In this document: positions 501 through 60,877 of the stretch, piece after piece | Layout of the letters: the number at the start of each line of letters is the position of its first letter | Numbering within the stretch: position 1 is the stretch's first letter | Origin: Candidatus Omnitrophota bacterium | GTDB lineage: Bacteria; Omnitrophota; Gorgyraeia; Gygaellales; Profunditerraquicolaceae | Assembly: GCA_963805065.1 (NCBI GenBank) | Contig: CAWDSS010000010.1 | Location: forward strand, 792,359-856,358 | DNA length: 64,000 nt | Direction: 5' to 3' | The notes under the pieces: model-generated | Seen by the model: only the letters and a program-made list of their open reading frames with translations | Told to the model about the DNA's origin: nothing | Database searches by the model: none | Translations under genes and position numbers: made by a program

Positions 501-3500
501 ATGTTTAAAGATGGTAAATTAGTTATACATATTGTTTTCGCAGATAAAGATGCAGTACGAGACCATATGGCAAAGACCTATGAGTTCTTCAGGCAAGAAG
601 GGTTTAATAAAATAGCATCATCTTCTGACCAAAACCATATCACTCTTGAAAAAGGCATTACACGCTTAGTTCTTTTTAATGGTGATAAGCAAAAATATGA
701 TATCAGGCAGCATCTGAAGGAAGGCGTATTCGGCTATTTCGGCCGGATGCACGCTAATAATGAAGACCTATTTTTGCAAACTGAGGAAGTTATACCTGCG
801 AAAGACAAGTTGTTTTTCCTTTCATCTTGCCGCAGTGTTAATGTTATGGAAAAATTTGCTGAATATTATCCTGGTGCAGAGTTTATAGGCGCTAACGAAA
901 CAGCCTATGGTGACGAGGCCAATAAATTAACAAAGGCCTATATAGATTCTTTCTTAAAACGAATCCCTACTTATGAAGACATCAGAGAAAATATCCGAGC
1001 AAATGGCGACTTTAGAAACTATGTGTTGCCGGGAGGCCCGGAAGACAAGGTGCGGAATATTATGCTGAATTCTAAGGAACAATCCGCCGGCTCGCCTGTT
1101 GGAATTGGCTCTAGCCCGCTACAAATGACACAAGAAAACATAGATAATATCAAGGGATGGAGCGTAAGGGTAGTAGAGCCTAAGTGGGTAAATATGGAAA
1201 AAGGAGAAGTTGACATAGCCATTGATGCTGCGCCGGATGATATGTCTAGTGACGTAAAAAAAGGGAAAATGGTTTTAAAGATAAGGCCTAACGATGTAAA
1301 GAATAATGTAGAATTGGTTATTCATCCTAAGCAGGGAGGAGAAGTCATCCTTCAACCAGAAAACCCATATTTTAAAGGCGTTTTTGAGGCTGTGTCTAGC
1401 CACCTTCCTGTTAGGTTATTAATGGCAGATCTTTCGAAAGAGCATCTTTCTATTGAGAAAGCTCTAAGCGACTATAAATTCGCAGGTACTCTGAATGCGA
1501 TATTACAAAAAAATAAGGATCAGGTTACCGAGTTATTGAATGTTTCGATAAAACAACTGGAGTACGTAGAGCATCGATTTCCTGAAGCAGTGCCTATGTA
1601 TAAGGATATTTTTAGGTTACTGCTTAAAGAAGTTAATGAATCTGGTTTGCCTACAATGAAAACTAACAAAGATTTCTATACGTGGCTGTATGGGATTAAA
1701 AGCATTAACGATTATCTCGGCAGATATACTTTTGAAGATAAACAGCAGATACTTCGTCAAACCGTTAGTCATATAATGCAGGCTGATTATGCAATGGCAA
1801 TGAAGTCCGCCGGCTCGCCGATGGACGTAAATACCGCATCTTCGGCAATAGGCAGCGTTATAGGAAAACTAACGAATTTATTTGCCAGAAAAAACACTAT
1901 ACCCGATTCGCAAGTTGATTGGATCAAAGATTTAAAAAGGCTTAAGCAAATTCCAGAGATCAACACGTCGGAAGAAATGTCTATGGGGCTTGATTTGACA
2001 GAGACATTGTTGAAAAATTCATCAATTTCAGATTTGGTAGAGCAGTTTGGTGTGAAGCCGTTTATAGATATACTTATAAGTAGTGCGGGTAATGTGTCCG
2101 GTGTACGCTTTATAATGCCCAAATTCCGTTTAAATATGCTAACCGACAAAATACCGGGGTTCATTGGATGGGGCACAGAAAATACTAATTTGGATGAAGG
2201 ATTCAAGGAGTATCAGCGGCTTAGAGACGCGGAATTACTAATGCAGAAAACCCGACAACAGATAGAACCATTGGTTAGCGCTTTGGAACCCATAAAAGAT
2301 TTAATAAAAGATGGCGTTATTGATATGCGGCAAATTCAGCAGGTAATGGATTTATCGGGTGGAAGTATTAGCGCGGCCTCTAGGTCTCTATCCGATTTGT
2401 CTGAAGTTATAAAAACCAACGGTCTAGAGGATCTCATAGAATTGGTTAATATAAATCAGAACCCCAATATGTTAAGAATTAAATGGGGGCTTGGGCCTGA
2501 TGAGTTTGGCTGGTTATCAGAATACAGAGATTTACTTTTAAAATACGGGACAAAACCATTTATTTTCATGGCCGGTATTTTAAAGAAAGACCATGTGTTT
2601 AGTAGTAAAGATAAATCTTCGGAAAATATTCTCGAATTTGCAAAAGAGCTGGAAGAGGACAATATTATTGATACCTATGGAATAGAGGTAGCATGCGCTG
2701 TTTTGTTAAAAGAAAAAGAAATCTATATAAAAGGACTATATCCTAATAATCCAATTATTGAAAAAAAAGATTGGGAATTTTTAAACTCCGCTGCTCATTA
2801 TTTAAGGCTATTAAAAGAAAAGAATGCCCGGTCATTAGAAGATTGGTCAAGGATGTCGGAAGGCTTGATTATCAAGGAAGACATAGATGCATTTATAACC
2901 TACTATCAATTATTTAGCGAATATGGCCTGGAAAATGTGGCTATTCTCTCTAAGTCGGTACGAGCAGGCTATATAGAGGGGCTTTTTAAACGCAATCGTC
3001 CTATAATTCAAAAGGTTGGTATTGAATCTCTTGTAGAGTTAAGCAAGAAAGATAGTAATGTTTTAACCCGCCTGGCAGACGCTGATATGGAAACCTGGGC
3101 ATTATTGTTTCTCCAGCAAGGAAAAATTGGGTCAGGAGAAAAGGATTTAAGGCAAACAGTTTTACATCTTAATAACCTATCGGTTTTCTACGATATGGAT
3201 CAATTTGGCTATAAAGATAAGATTATGTCGGCATTGTTACAAGTATTACAACATAATAAACGATATGAAAAACTAAATTTAGTAGAAGACTTTCTGGTGA
3301 CAAATTTGTTCCGTAGCCGAGAAGTGCAAGATAAAATAAGCGATTATCTGGTGAAGGAAAAAACAGATGTTAAAAGGGCGCTAATTACAAGAGCGCTTTT
3401 TTGGAAATACGCCAAATTAAGTGATGAGAAAATTCACCCGTTCGACTCGCTGCACATAAATGATATGTACGACCAGGTAATATTAAATACAGAATCAAAG

Positions 3501-5348
3501 AACTTACCTCAGGCATTGAACTTTATTCCCACCTGCTCTGTTCTTACGGATAAAGGTATTATTACTACAACGCAGTTTCAATTCGCAGCGCAATCGGGAG
3601 ATTTGATAAATGCAATACCAAAACTGCTTTCCACTAAAATTGAAGAAGTTTTTAATCTAAAACTTCAAAAAAAGCATGAACTGGCGCAAAACGCGCTTAC
3701 CGATACAGATTTTCTAGTCGATCTATTTAATTTTCATAGAGCATATATTTCAAATAGCAATGCCTCTGAAGTGCTAAAAAGACTGGTAAAGGTGTATTTT
3801 GAAGAGGGGCCGGAAGGCGTTATGCGTTATAAAGCATCGCAGGAGCTCTCTAATCAACAAGCACCAGAACAGATAATATCCAAGTTTATGGAACTATCGC
3901 AGTTAGCAGCTACGGTACGCGAAGGAGAAGAATCAGAGCTTAATATATTTGAGCAATTATTTAAAACTACCCTAGATAGTTACGAAAGGCATATGCAAGA
4001 AAACAAGTTTGATATTAAAGGACTCGCCATAGATAATCAAGAGGATATTCATAGGCTGGAAGCAAGTATAAAGGGGTTTCTATCTCAAGCCAAGGATGTT
4101 GCTTTGCGAGATGCCTTAAGCTCAAATGAACCGGATAAACTATTAACCCTTAAGCTTTTCGGTAAAGATGAAAAAATACGTAATCAAGCCATAGGAATAT
4201 TTAAAAGAATTAACCTGATGCGACAAGAGGCAGATTTGGGCCAGGCGATAAAAATTGCTGAACAAATACGCGGTACTGAGAAGCTGCCTAATGAAGAGCA
4301 AAAAGATATGATTGGAAAACTAGCCGAATCAAATCAGGAAAGAATTCCTAAATTAATGCCGGTTATGAGAATGATTCATCAGCAGTTAATAGAAAAGGAT
4401 AAACCGGAGGCTCAAATAATAGCCGAACTGATAGGAACGCTTCAGGCGTTAAACGACTTTCCGAATTATCTTAACTCATTATCAGCTAATATGATTACTG
4501 CGGAAGTAAGTTTTGATCTTAAGGATACATTAAAGATCGGTCGCTTTGGCGCAAGCGGACAGGGCAATTGTCAAAGTAGCACTAATACTGGTAATTATAA
4601 CAAGAGCCTAATGAGTTTTATTGGAGATTCCCATGAGTTAATCATTATTTTGCGTGATAGCTCTAAGGATGTTATTGGATTTGCGCTCTTGCATGGAGTT
4701 TATCTTGATGATATGGAGTTTGCTTATGTAAAAGAAAGTGTATACACAAATGATAATACTCAAACTGCTCTGCAGGAAGAAGCTTCGAAAAAGATTGCCC
4801 GACAGATAGCAAACCTTTTACAAGTTAAAATATTAGAGGCTAACCCTCAGGAAGGAAAAGATTTTACAGTAACCATCCCTGAAAGCTACGTTCCAAGGTA
4901 TTTAGATTCTTTGGGCGGAGCAGTGCAGCCTTTGAAAATACAGAGAGATATAAAGGCAACAATTATTGAGCCAGCATCATCTAATCTTATAAAACAATCC
5001 TCCGGCTCGCCGATGGATTTAAAGGGTGGTATTGACCTTTCTAAAATTGAACTTACGCTGAAAGACGAAAAGTATATGTCTAGCCTTAGTCCTGCGGATG
5101 TAAAAGTATTGCGGGCGGCAAAGGCATTAAAAGATCAGTGGGACAGTCTGTCGCTATTGTATGTTCATGAGATAATGCTGATGATGAAGGACGGGCTGGT
5201 CAAAGACCTGCAAAATAAAAATGTGCTGCTAAATGTAATGGATCAGTTAAAATCAAGGTCATTCTTAGACCCGCAGGCAATGCAATTCTTCAATCTAATT
5301 CTATTAGAAAAATCGCCTTCCGAAATCAAACTCGCCCTATCGAATTAA
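501..5348 (+). CDS. giant hypothetical protein (1615 aa) with a thrice-repeated S-[AS]-G-S-P-[VM] motif
   Basis: Uninterrupted 4.8-kb ORF in an AT-rich background. No catalytic motif recognised. The motif occurs at about aa 195, 436 and 1500. Confidence 0.7.
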   Translation: MFKDGKLVIHIVFADKDAVRDHMAKTYEFFRQEGFNKIASSSDQNHITLEKGITRLVLFNGDKQKYDIRQHLKEGVFGYFGRMHANNEDLFLQTEEVIPAKDKLFFLSSCRSVNVMEKFAEYYPGAEFIGANETAYGDEANKLTKAYIDSFLKRIPTYEDIRENIRANGDFRNYVLPGGPEDKVRNIMLNSKEQSAGSPVGIGSSPLQMTQENIDNIKGWSVRVVEPKWVNMEKGEVDIAIDAAPDDMSSDVKKGKMVLKIRPNDVKNNVELVIHPKQGGEVILQPENPYFKGVFEAVSSHLPVRLLMADLSKEHLSIEKALSDYKFAGTLNAILQKNKDQVTELLNVSIKQLEYVEHRFPEAVPMYKDIFRLLLKEVNESGLPTMKTNKDFYTWLYGIKSINDYLGRYTFEDKQQILRQTVSHIMQADYAMAMKSAGSPMDVNTASSAIGSVIGKLTNLFARKNTIPDSQVDWIKDLKRLKQIPEINTSEEMSMGLDLTETLLKNSSISDLVEQFGVKPFIDILISSAGNVSGVRFIMPKFRLNMLTDKIPGFIGWGTENTNLDEGFKEYQRLRDAELLMQKTRQQIEPLVSALEPIKDLIKDGVIDMRQIQQVMDLSGGSISAASRSLSDLSEVIKTNGLEDLIELVNINQNPNMLRIKWGLGPDEFGWLSEYRDLLLKYGTKPFIFMAGILKKDHVFSSKDKSSENILEFAKELEEDNIIDTYGIEVACAVLLKEKEIYIKGLYPNNPIIEKKDWEFLNSAAHYLRLLKEKNARSLEDWSRMSEGLIIKEDIDAFITYYQLFSEYGLENVAILSKSVRAGYIEGLFKRNRPIIQKVGIESLVELSKKDSNVLTRLADADMETWALLFLQQGKIGSGEKDLRQTVLHLNNLSVFYDMDQFGYKDKIMSALLQVLQHNKRYEKLNLVEDFLVTNLFRSREVQDKISDYLVKEKTDVKRALITRALFWKYAKLSDEKIHPFDSLHINDMYDQVILNTESKNLPQALNFIPTCSVLTDKGIITTTQFQFAAQSGDLINAIPKLLSTKIEEVFNLKLQKKHELAQNALTDTDFLVDLFNFHRAYISNSNASEVLKRLVKVYFEEGPEGVMRYKASQELSNQQAPEQIISKFMELSQLAATVREGEESELNIFEQLFKTTLDSYERHMQENKFDIKGLAIDNQEDIHRLEASIKGFLSQAKDVALRDALSSNEPDKLLTLKLFGKDEKIRNQAIGIFKRINLMRQEADLGQAIKIAEQIRGTEKLPNEEQKDMIGKLAESNQERIPKLMPVMRMIHQQLIEKDKPEAQIIAELIGTLQALNDFPNYLNSLSANMITAEVSFDLKDTLKIGRFGASGQGNCQSSTNTGNYNKSLMSFIGDSHELIIILRDSSKDVIGFALLHGVYLDDMEFAYVKESVYTNDNTQTALQEEASKKIARQIANLLQVKILEANPQEGKDFTVTIPESYVPRYLDSLGGAVQPLKIQRDIKATIIEPASSNLIKQSSGSPMDLKGGIDLSKIELTLKDEKYMSSLSPADVKVLRAAKALKDQWDSLSLLYVHEIMLMMKDGLVKDLQNKNVLLNVMDQLKSRSFLDPQAMQFFNLILLEKSPSEIKLALSN

Positions 5349-5418
5349 TACTATTATTTTGCTTCAGTGTTTGTTCGCGTGCTGAAATCTGTCTTATTCT
5401 CCTCACGCTCTACATTAC

Positions 5419-5748
5419 GCGGGTCCTGCCTGCCGAGCCACCCTTTTCGTGCTCATTCACCTCGTCCCGCCATTGGCGGGCCTCGGCTGATTCTGCGCGA
5501 AAAGGGGACTCGGCTCGGCAGTCACCCGCTAATATACAAGGCGCTCGGAGATTGAATCTGACTATTTGTCGAAGAATTTTATGCGTTTCGCTGAAGGCAC
5601 ATTAGAAAATTTTCGGCACAGCTATTAAATAGTAGTGCGCAAGGAATTACGCTGAACGAAAGGCAGCGCTTAAGCGTAAGTCACCATGACCGAAAGTGAG
5701 GCGTAAGCCGAAGCGCACGGCGAAAATTTTCAGTGCCGGAAGCGAAAC
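5419..5748 (+). ncRNA. candidate structured non-coding RNA, family not recognised
   Basis: Two long imperfect helices. Helix 1: 5419-5449 pairs with 5498-5529, with an inner GC hairpin at 5466-5480. Helix 2: 5585-5620 pairs with 5719-5748 and encloses small hairpins, including GGC-GTAA-GCC at 5700-5709. The region is GC-rich compared with its flanks. Confidence 0.4.
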
Positions 5749-5787
5749 CATAAAATAAATAAGTCGAAGTGAGAATAGCATTTGAAC

Positions 5788-5816
5788 TTGTATTTTGCGA
5801 CTTGGCGTGGTATGAT
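5788..5816 (+). promoter_or_regulatory. putative sigma70-type promoter (TTGTAT, 17-nt spacer, extended -10 TGGTATGAT)
   Basis: Hexamers read directly. The SD GGAGGAGG at 5828-5835 precedes the ATG at 5846. Confidence 0.4.
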
Positions 5817-5845
5817 AGCAAGCTATGGAGGAGGCAAAAACAAAC

Positions 5846-6166
5846 ATGATTACTTACGAGGATTTCAAGAAATTAGAGTTGAAAGTGGCTGAAATTAAAG
5901 AAGTTATTGAACATCCTAACGCAGACAGGCTGTATGTTATAACCATTGACTTGGGAGACAAAACTAAGCAGATTGTTGCCGGGATAAGAGCAAATTACCA
6001 GAAAGAAGATTTAATAGGCAAGCAAGTGGTAGTAGCGGATAATTTAGAGCCGGCAATTTTACGCGGCATAGAAAGCCAAGGCATGCTTTTAGCAGCTTCA
6101 GATGAAACTGGCATAGTTATTATCAGTCCGGAACGCAAAATGAAATTAGGAAGCATAGTCAAATGA
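5846..6166 (+). CDS. stand-alone tRNA-binding (OB-fold, CsaA/Trbp111-like) domain protein
   Basis: The sequence ITYEDFKKLELKVAEI..HPNADRLYV..DLG...QIVAGI resembles the C-terminal tRNA-binding domain of MetRS/CsaA. I prefer the internal ATG at 5846 (strong SD) over the ORF-track start at 5825. Confidence 0.75.
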   Translation: MITYEDFKKLELKVAEIKEVIEHPNADRLYVITIDLGDKTKQIVAGIRANYQKEDLIGKQVVVADNLEPAILRGIESQGMLLAASDETGIVIISPERKMKLGSIVK

Positions 6167-17308: not shown

Positions 17309-17973
17309 AGCCAGTTTTGAATTCTGTTTATAAAAAACTCTACGCATATTTTGGGCCTCAGCACTGGTGGCCAGGCGAAAGCCGCTTTGAGGTTATGGTA
17401 GGAGCAATACTTACGCAAAACACTAACTGGTCTAATGTAGAAAAAGCAATTGCCAATATCAAAAAACAAAACTTATTGCAATTCCAAAGGCTTCAAAGGC
17501 TGTCGCACAAAAGATTAGCCAGCTTAATCAGGCCTGCCGGTTATTATAATCTCAAGGCAAGGCGTTTAAAGGAATTCTTAAAATTCCTGCACAATCATTG
17601 CCGGGGTAATCTTCGTAAAATGTCCTGCGGGCCCATGGATGAACTGCGAGAGAAATTACTCTCTGTGAAAGGCATTGGCCCTGAGACAGCAGATTCTATC
17701 TTACTTTATGCTTTGAACAAGCCTGTGTTTGTGGTAGACGCATACACAAAAAGAATACTCTTGCGGCACAACATAATCAGAGAAGACTCCGATTATGCCG
17801 CAGTGCAAAATTTGTTTATGGAAAATCTAAAAAATGAGGTAAAATTATTCAACGAATACCATGCGTTATTAGTCAGGTTGGGTAAAGAATTCTGCCTCAA
17901 AAATAAGCCTAAATGTAAAGGATGCCCGATAAACTCAAAACGCAAAAGTCAAAATGCAAAACTTACAACGTAA
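17305..17973 (+). CDS. endonuclease III-like HhH-GPD DNA glycosylase family protein
   Basis: HhH motif LLSVKGIGPETADSILLY. Catalytic D in the VVDAYT context. C-terminal Cys residues. Confidence 0.7.
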   Translation: MKPVLNSVYKKLYAYFGPQHWWPGESRFEVMVGAILTQNTNWSNVEKAIANIKKQNLLQFQRLQRLSHKRLASLIRPAGYYNLKARRLKEFLKFLHNHCRGNLRKMSCGPMDELREKLLSVKGIGPETADSILLYALNKPVFVVDAYTKRILLRHNIIREDSDYAAVQNLFMENLKNEVKLFNEYHALLVRLGKEFCLKNKPKCKGCPINSKRKSQNAKLTT

Positions 17974-18683
17974 AACGCAAAACAAAAGTTTTGTCATTTG
18001 GTATTTGTGCTTTGAGCTTATTTTGGATTTTGTGCTTTGATATTTGTCATTTCGCTTATGCTGCGCCCTGTTACGGAACTAAGCTGCCTGAAAAAAACCA
18101 AATTTTTACGGGATTGCAAAGTTATTCTGTTTTTAACCGGTATCTGGAGGATGATGATGGAAAATTAAGGAGCCAGCAGGAATTTTTGCTTCTCTCCTAC
18201 GGGTTCCTAGATTGGTTATCTGTTGATTTAAAAGGAGGGGCAGGCTACATAAAACAGCATCCCTTCGGAAGCGATGAGCTTGATTATCCGACGTATCTAG
18301 GAGGTGGATACGGATTCAGAATTAAATTTTTTGATAAACAAAACACCAAGATGGTTTTTGGTTTTCAGCACATAAGCGTGCATCCCTATACTATTAGCGT
18401 AGAAGGCGTAAAGAACAAGGCAGTTTTAGATGATTGGCAGTTTTCCTTACTGGCATCGTATGATTTCAAGAAAATTACACCTTATCTGGGAACCAGGTGG
18501 TCCTGGCTGGATTATATCCACTGGACAAATGGTAATAGTAAATTAGAAAAGTCGGATTTAGGTAAGAGTGTCGGCCTGGTAGTAGGTTGCGACCTTCCCG
18601 TGAACGAGAGGTTCTGGTTTAATTTAGAAGGACAATTCTTTGATAGCGAAGCCCTCGCCTTCAGCGCGAATTATAGTTTTTAA
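17922..18683 (+). CDS. putative outer-membrane beta-barrel protein
   Basis: K-rich N-region, hydrophobic core and AYA cleavage-like site. Alternating aromatic/Gly strands and a terminal aromatic residue (..NYSF). Confidence 0.45.
   Translation: MPDKLKTQKSKCKTYNVKRKTKVLSFGICALSLFWILCFDICHFAYAAPCYGTKLPEKNQIFTGLQSYSVFNRYLEDDDGKLRSQQEFLLLSYGFLDWLSVDLKGGAGYIKQHPFGSDELDYPTYLGGGYGFRIKFFDKQNTKMVFGFQHISVHPYTISVEGVKNKAVLDDWQFSLLASYDFKKITPYLGTRWSWLDYIHWTNGNSKLEKSDLGKSVGLVVGCDLPVNERFWFNLEGQFFDSEALAFSANYSF
17934..18060. repeat. inverted pair of heptamer arrays: (NNCAAAA)x7 followed by (NTTTGNN)x~9
   Basis: Read directly. It spans the 3' end of the endoIII-like gene and the N-terminus of the next ORF. 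Confidence 0.85.
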
Positions 18684-60750: not shown

Positions 60751-60755
60751 TATTC

Positions 60756-60877
60756 GTGTAATGTGTAAAGTGTAATGTGTAATGCAGGTGTAATGTGTAT
60801 ATGTGTAACGGATAAAGCACTTGCATCACACAATCAAACATTACACAACGTTACACATTACACGTTAAAGTTACACA
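60756..60877. repeat. heptamer arrays (GTGTAAT)x~7 and inverted (ATTACAC)x~4 forming a long imperfect hairpin
   Basis: Read directly. It fills the intergenic gap between KS-beta and the radical SAM gene. Confidence 0.85.

Follow-up and report, generated by a model that had tools for sequence, protein, structure and literature searches.

An uncatalogued family of rod-shaped structured RNAs in Omnitrophota

Several described RNAs take the form of a rod. 6S RNA (RF00013 and its relatives), which binds the RNA polymerase holoenzyme and templates product RNA, is a stand-alone molecule of ~180-200 nucleotides (nt) that is mostly double-stranded, with paired ends and conserved internal loops. The 4.5S RNA of the signal recognition particle (SRP; RF00169, RF01854) is a hairpin rod with conserved symmetric and asymmetric, purine-rich internal loops that serve as the protein-binding site in the SRP, and in its helix 8 motif symmetric and asymmetric loops lie next to a conserved GNRA tetraloop at the apex. 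Y RNAs, too, are rods with paired ends and conserved internal loops. Palindromes of the ERIC/IRU, REPIN and MITE-like kinds are intergenic and imperfect, measure 100-200 nt, lie in either orientation, occur as fragments and inverted copies, may be co-transcribed with their neighbours and tolerate internal insertions at fixed sites. Here we describe H2, a rod-shaped element of ~190 nt that resembles these RNAs in its paired ends and conserved internal loops, and the palindromes in its size, its free orientation and its fragments. It lies at 5573-5763 on the + strand of a 64,000-nt stretch (hereafter the window; contig CAWDSS010000010.1 of assembly GCA_963805065.1, positions 792,359 to 856,358) from a Candidatus Omnitrophota bacterium.

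The Omnitrophota have not been cultured; most are ultra-small bacteria that have reduced genomes and probably depend on a host (PMC10066038). No lineage-specific RNA came up for them in literature searches, nor did any paper linking them to an RNA of this kind or containing the core sequence of H2. The route of discovery was the same as for orphan RNAs such as raiA, ROOL and OLE, Rfam motifs without an assigned function: a strongly folded, GC-rich spacer stood out in an AT-rich genome, and covariation supported it. Unlike these RNAs, H2 is a plain rod with no branches, far below ROOL, GOLLD or OLE in size, and their models do not match it. There is good reason to class the finding as an orphan structured RNA, which is a familiar kind.

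An earlier note, made from the sequence of the window, had proposed that 330 nt of the spacer 5349-5824 form one candidate novel structured RNA with two long helices. Both helices are present as described, with folding energies far below those of dinucleotide shuffles. For the second helix, here H2, the proposal stands, since it has homologues with strong compensatory variation, a strand bias and no Rfam match. A single RNA with two comparable helices does not, as the first helix, here H1, keeps only its basal stem in the one syntenic relative, folds better on the opposite strand and is missing at some H2 loci. That H2 represents a new structured-RNA family, absent from the RNA family catalogue, is well supported. 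On balance, we read the spacer as two separable elements plus a fragment of a third, with H2 probably a stand-alone, stable, protein-binding RNA of this uncatalogued family.

Fold, homologues and covariation of H2

The spacer differs in composition from its surroundings, with a GC content of 0.565 at 5401-5600 against ~0.38 in the flanking DNA. Within it, the segment 5570-5760 folds with a minimum free energy of -73.1 kcal/mol, compared to -43.4 ± 3.9 kcal/mol in dinucleotide shuffles (z -7.6) and -61.6 kcal/mol for the antisense strand. The RNAalifold consensus, with 40 pairs, is an unbranched rod whose 5' and 3' ends are paired. Its outer part is the helix that had been drawn before, in which GTTTCGCT (5585-5592), GGCAC and GAAAATTTTCG (5605-5615) pair with 5741-5748, 5733-5737 and 5721-5731, respectively. 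It comprises P1 (5585-5591/5742-5748), P2 (5597-5600/5733-5736) and P3 (5605-5617/5719-5731), with compensatory changes in 6 of 7, 2 of 4 and 3 of 12 pairs; these coordinates, and those of all parts of H2 below, refer to the + strand. A conserved asymmetric loop, AUUA (5601-5604), lies opposite a conserved AG bulge on the 3' strand, and P3 is followed by P4 (5618-5634), a variable side hairpin or bulge of 4 to ~35 nt in homologues that is missing in two of them (L043 and L049; loci outside the window are given L numbers throughout).

The conserved core (5635-5718) is ~90% identical to that of the syntenic locus L012. It opens with P5, in which GTGCGC (5635-5640) pairs with GCGCAC (5713-5718); this pairing had been seen earlier, with the second arm placed one base off. 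A GG:CC step (5643-5644/5708-5709) leads to P6 (5647-5653/5700-5706), formed by UUACGCU and GGCGUAA. The bases of P6 had been read as a small GGC-GTAA-GCC hairpin, but covariation assigns them to the long-range helix; two homologues have ACC for GCC, which would break the GTAA hairpin and leaves the long-range helix intact. Beyond P7 (5656-5657/5696-5697), two GAAA tracts face each other in a symmetric 4x4 internal loop (5658-5661/5692-5695) that lies between two short helices, and the tracts are therefore not the two C-GAAA-G loops of GNRA type that had been suggested. A second GG:CC step (5662-5663/5690-5691) carries the distal hairpin at the tip of the rod (5664-5689), which is the most variable part of the alignment. 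In L048 and L049, GGCGTAAGCC is changed to GGCGTAAACC. Across the 16-sequence alignment the best-conserved positions are the unpaired purines of the internal loops (AUUA/AG, RA/GAA and GARA/GAAA), which lie in the inner third of the rod and are nearly invariant; the outer helices covary freely, with most variation in the outermost one.

Overall, we found ~20 related sequences on uncultured Omnitrophota-type metagenome contigs and in metagenome-assembled genomes (MAGs); a DNA-pattern scan combined with a covariance model gave 16 full-length homologues plus diverged or truncated copies. L012, a short contig, encodes a tRNA-binding protein 92% identical to that of the window, and between this gene and the C-terminal end of a large open reading frame (ORF) it carries the homologous spacer. 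Its whole H2 is 74% identical to ours, BLASTN matches the region at 78% over 191 nt (E 5e-38), and the outer helices are compensated, with GTGCGC/GCGCAC replaced by GTCTGC/GCAGAC and GGCAC/GTGCC by GCGTGC/GCACGC. Scanning Joint Genome Institute (JGI) metagenome contigs with the core pattern CCGAAAGNGAGGCGNRAGCCGAA returned 25 loci, of which 16 are clear full or partial homologues of the same architecture and 9 are chance matches in GC-rich coding DNA. A second pattern, built from both core blocks, matched only 2 of 185,579 species-representative genomes, with a single match in an Omnitrophota MAG and another in a MAG that bears the label Planctomycetales. Only chance matches came from four scans covering 2.9 million viral contigs, and BLASTN found no match in phage and plasmid collections, so that a phage or plasmid origin is unsupported. 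So far, the family is confined to a narrow group of Omnitrophota.

A covariance model, R1, was built from the RNAalifold alignment of 15 sequences, in which compensatory changes affect 13 of the 40 pairs. With R1, each locus yields one full copy that scores 146-200 bits; in the window H2 is the only strong match (186.5 bits, E 3e-46), and no repeat copy of H2 or H1 was found there. The concern that the region might be a decayed repeat of high copy number is thus not borne out within the data available. In the R1 alignment of the 16 full-length sequences, 96.1% of cells are in standard pairs (86.5% in shuffles), 63 cells are changed on both sides (22.7 in shuffles) and the covariation score is 0.263 (0.101 in shuffles, with none of 500 shuffles reaching the observed value), figures that lean towards structure, given the relatedness of the sequences and an alignment fitted to R1. 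When the register is slid by 1-3 columns, the score is 0.012-0.059. Compensatory changes occur in 5 of 6 helices, and even the conserved core has one, at the pair 5656/5697, with A-U in 11 sequences and G-C in the other 5.

Two results favour the + strand as the one on which H2 acts as RNA. G.U pairs outnumber A.C mismatches by 7 to 2 in the well-aligned helices 2-6, and in 15 of 16 homologues folding favours the sense strand over its complement, with a mean gain of ~10 kcal/mol. In the syntenic pair L037/L047, H2 is 97.4% identical as against 80.7% in adjacent DNA, which places it under purifying selection. It is not coding, since the longest open frames vary in strand, frame and length across the 16 homologues and stops are not kept; likewise, the ORFs called at 5367-5555 and 5647-5847, already suspected to be artefacts, have no Pfam match and no reading frame kept among homologues. 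Nor could H2 be assigned to a described family, in agreement with the first reading of the spacer: Infernal with Rfam 15 at gathering score found nothing in the window or the 16 loci except tRNAs and a thiamine pyrophosphate (TPP) riboswitch elsewhere, and relaxing the search to E 10 with permissive filters gave only unrelated matches of 14-15 bits (bxd_4, ceN70, carA), far below their gathering scores. It is thus established that H2 is conserved, covaries, has a strand bias, does not code for protein, does not depend on particular neighbouring genes and, within the data available, is low in copy number.

H1, the arm fragment and the surrounding genes

H1 is a GC-rich extended hairpin at 5414-5533, with its core at 5419-5529 and weaker pairing out to ~5394-5558. 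As proposed in the earlier note, GCGGGT..CTGCCGAGCC.CCCTTTTCG (5419-5449) pairs with 5498-5529 around CCCGCC-ATT-GGCGGG. The + strand of 5400-5540 reaches -71.8 kcal/mol, compared to -41.1 ± 3.5 kcal/mol in dinucleotide shuffles (z -8.8, 0 of 200 as good), but the - strand is more stable still (-80.8 kcal/mol, z -9.1). The same holds for the 120-nt H1 segment (-75.4 kcal/mol on the strand opposite H2 versus -71.3 on the H2 strand) and for its relative in L012 (-84.2 versus -62.1 kcal/mol). Only the base of H1, GCGGGTCCTGCC...TCACCCGC, is shared with L012, whose interior is longer and cannot be aligned. As the sole syntenic homologue has an identical, hence uninformative, basal stem, H1 is without covariation support; in the L026 hairpin, one change in the closing pair is possibly compensatory. 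Most loci have a GC-rich hairpin just 5' of H2, related in sequence from locus to locus but heterogeneous; L030 and L049 have none. The GCGGGTCCTG terminus occurs solely beside H2 copies in the 390 kb examined, so the association of H1 with H2 is not random. H1 was also considered as an intrinsic terminator and rejected: none was called on either strand, there is no U tract, and the hairpin is followed by TAATATAC on the + strand and GTAATGTAG on the - strand. We treat H1 as a loosely conserved, accessory companion hairpin that comparative data support weakly; it may be an insulating or processing hairpin.

The third component of the spacer lies right after the stop codon of the large ORF. On the - strand, 5352-5390 carries the 3'-arm signature CAGCACGCGAAC, matches the 3' arm of the second H2 copy of L023 at 86% identity over 37 nt, and gives a weak R1 match (9.1 bits, 3' arm only). 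It is what survives, as a 3' arm, of an inverted H2-like copy that L023 still has complete, and H1 may be what remains of the core of that inverted partner.

Small GC-rich palindromes (GCCTGCCTGCC-RGCA-GGCAGG) are inserted inside H2 of L024, L030, L036, L040 and L042, and also in the upstream hairpin of L036. In L025, a 45-nt double hairpin sits in the AUUA loop of H2 with TCAG on both sides. In several lineages, palindromes of the form CCTGCCTGCC..GGCAGGCAGG occupy differing sites of H2, its loops among them, and of the upstream hairpins, and they behave like small insertable hairpins; the motif CCTGCCTGCC is also part of H1 in the window (5425-5434). A structured module of 73 nt adjoins H2 inside a hairpin-bounded element in three loci (L012 585-657, L026 2218-2290 and L044 1271-1343). 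It lies in opposite orientation relative to H2, begins with the same GCGGGTCCTG as H1 of the window and has no Rfam match.

The spacer itself is an ordinary intergenic region. Upstream of it, the large ORF (501-5348, + strand) encodes an orphan protein of 1615 amino acids (aa) with no Pfam family and only a self-match among 5.8 billion proteins, and nucleotides 1-145 of L012 encode a C-terminal end clearly homologous to it despite its orphan status in the protein search. Very large, poorly conserved ORFs are reported to be common in Omnitrophota (PMC10066038). The large ORF is missing at most H2 loci, which gives no link between the two. Downstream, on a contig of 1.19 Mb, a gene for a 106-aa protein with a tRNA-binding domain (5846-6166, + strand; PF01588, E 1e-27) heads a conserved operon, its start being placed at 5846 because homologues in Candidatus Omnitrophota/Omnitrophica MAGs are 106 aa long. 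Relatives keep this operon, with the tRNA-binding protein followed by a CxxCxxCC protein, LPG_synthase_C, an RNase T/WYL protein, a chorismate-binding enzyme and further genes.

A promoter-like element of this operon, outside the RNA, lies at 5789-5817 on the + strand (TTGTAT, 17 nt, TGgTATGAT). It is strongly conserved as TTGAnCTTGTnTTTTG...GCGTGCTATnAT (TTGTnT, 17 nt, TGnTATnAT) in the window, L012, L013, L014, L015, L051 and L052, and is retained in relatives with or without H1/H2 despite quite different upstream content. Since it sits between H2 and the gene, H1 and H2 are upstream of the promoter and not within its leader. The operon is conserved and the spacer is not: among the relatives compared, only L012 has both H1 and H2 in synteny, and the others have spacers of 30-44 nt, an AbiE/HNH island, other repeats or an acyltransferase gene. 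In L001 (900-3830) the same spot carries AbiEi/AbiEii and HNH genes, and the spacers of L001 and L002 hold a ~150-nt element, of which L002 (~810-1150) has two copies in tandem. The site upstream of the operon looks like a hotspot for variable DNA.

Across the whole 64-kb window, ARAGORN found no tRNA or transfer-messenger RNA (tmRNA), and no Rfam family was detected. An intergenic region at 60755-60870, just 5' of a gene starting at ~60891, is crowded with GTGTAATGTGTAA / TTACACATTACAC in direct and inverted orientation and may be an array of binding sites. At 17929-18021 there is an AT-rich imperfect palindrome with repeated AAAACGCAAAA / TTTTGTG motifs, whose 36-nt arms are 75% complementary.

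Genomic settings of H2 and competing explanations

H2 sits between unrelated housekeeping genes, in either orientation and, as a rule, as one intact copy per contig. Its neighbours include a PP-loop ATPase of the TtcA/TilS type (L023, L035), an M20 peptidase (L026, L044), TruA with ribosomal protein L21 (L030), an NAD(P)HX dehydratase with tRNA genes (L037, L047), RuvB (L024), Thi4 (L025), an oxidoreductase (L040), an RluA-type pseudouridine synthase (L042), QueH (L048) and a PurM-like gene (L049). With either orientation and unrelated neighbours, a fixed cis-regulatory leader is ruled out. tRNA-related neighbours are found in 6 of ~13 contexts (the window, L012, L023, L035, L030, L042, L048 and L037/L047), where roughly 1-2 would be expected, the expectation being a rough one and the category defined after the fact.

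A number of observations weigh against H2 as a stand-alone RNA. No sigma-70 match recurs consistently 5' of the rod, and no terminator flanks it; in L035 and L040 the next start codon follows within ~10-25 nt of the rod, and in L037/L047 a divergent tRNA gene is only 24 nt away. With such close neighbours and no promoter or terminator of its own, H2 may be cut from longer transcripts or be part of them. Some copies behave in a repeat-like way: L023 has a second, diverged, inverted copy, complete and 135 nt away, the copy of L042 is truncated by the neighbouring gene, and isolated inverted 3'-arm fragments occur in L048 as well as in the window. Moreover, near-identical copies have different 3' neighbours, as in L025 and L034, which differ at 2 of ~110 aligned bases, and in L024 and L040, which are 93% identical in H2 and differ in their 3' flanks. 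That the core pattern matches only two species genomes shows that H2 is not a phylum-wide housekeeping RNA, and the protein-scaffold mechanism is drawn wholly from analogy.

It is possible, if clearly less probable in our view, that H2 and the H1-type hairpins are selfish DNA, a palindrome of low copy number like those of the MITE, REPIN or ERIC kind, in which the hairpin is kept because single-stranded DNA or the transcript is needed for the element's own spread, with no host function or at most side effects on neighbouring mRNAs. The long terminal inverted arms and the occurrence in either orientation relative to neighbours would fit, as would the inverted, truncated and fragmentary copies and the near-identical copies in different flanks described above. 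So would one H2 subtype found in three contexts on three contigs of a single metagenome (L023, L042, L045), the palindromes inserted at differing sites, and the 73-nt module, with 96% identity between genomes that share only ~70% in H2. However, elements of this kind are multicopy per genome and many have target duplications, whereas H2 is single or low copy in the data examined, with one copy in the window, one match in each of two species genomes and none beyond chance in the viral contigs. Its longest direct repeats in its own flanks are 5-7 nt, and 24% of 240 cross-locus control pairs reach at least 7 nt; the 7-nt repeats considered as target-site duplications in the window (GTCGAAG), L045 and L026 were accordingly discarded as no better than these controls. 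No transposase, integrase or mobile gene flanks any H2 copy, which also leaves unsupported the idea that islands had integrated into the 3' end of an RNA gene. The loop bases of H2 are its most conserved ones and the arms covary (in P1 at 6 of 7 pairs), the reverse of a terminal repeat recognised by a transposase, and L037/L047 conserve H2 far above its flanks.

The lack of a promoter and terminator can also be accommodated if H2 is a cis-acting element in the untranslated regions of neighbouring mRNAs or in tRNA precursors, either a stabilising or processing hairpin (e.g. an RNase III site) or a leader controlling the downstream gene. H2 lies directly 5' of a co-oriented gene in the window and L012 (the tRNA-binding protein), in L023/L035, in L026/L044 and in L040; L035 and L040 have no room for a promoter between H2 and the gene, and a weak promoter-like match is present in the 3' arm itself (TTTTCA-18-TAAAAT, 5727-5756). 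Against this, in about half of the loci H2 is antisense to or convergent with both neighbours (L024, L025, L030, L037/L047, L042, L043, L049), the downstream genes are mutually unrelated, and in the window the operon has its separate conserved promoter, which relatives keep without H2. We therefore consider a cis-acting role unlikely. Least probable is a strongly diverged housekeeping RNA with paired ends, such as 6S, 4.5S/SRP, a bacterial Y RNA or a reduced RNase P RNA. The rod of ~190 nt with paired termini and conserved internal loops invites the comparison, as do the frequent tRNA-related neighbours and a GAGGAA followed by a 7-bp helix that, by eye, faintly recalls the P4 region of RNase P. 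Yet the Rfam models for these families give no match, even with the cut-off relaxed to E 10. H2 is without the large two-sided central bubble by which 6S RNA mimics an open promoter, having instead a junction with 0 nt on the 3' side and a variable bulge of 4-35 nt on the 5' side, and its distribution is narrow. In contrast to SRP RNA it has neither the SRP tetraloop nor the AGCA/GGAA loop motif of helix 8, and it is conserved in mid-rod and variable at the tip; matches in 2 of 185,579 species genomes are too few for an essential RNA.

Our preferred explanation remains that of a stable RNA acting on its own. H2 would exist as a stable RNA and, since neither a promoter nor a terminator of its own can be seen, would probably be released from longer transcripts; it may act in trans as a scaffold. 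Its invariant internal loops could be protein-binding or tertiary-contact sites, as in 6S, 4.5S/SRP and Y RNAs. That the unpaired loop purines are the best-conserved bases fits such sites and not ends recognised by a transposase.

Meaning for Omnitrophota

To conclude, a GC-rich folded spacer in an AT-rich genome led to a structured-RNA family, and the approach works on the raw sequence of uncultured lineages. A bolder proposal, which we offer as a long shot, is that H2 is the RNA subunit of an undescribed ribonucleoprotein in an ultra-small Omnitrophota lineage, tied to tRNA biology, with the hairpin and the inverted copy as part of the design of the locus. Should H2 turn out to be selfish DNA, it would be an unusual low-copy palindromic element, with conserved loops rather than conserved ends. 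The covariation and the invariant loops of H2 provide a handle by which it can be sought in metatranscriptomes, used as bait for a protein partner and added to RNA catalogues.

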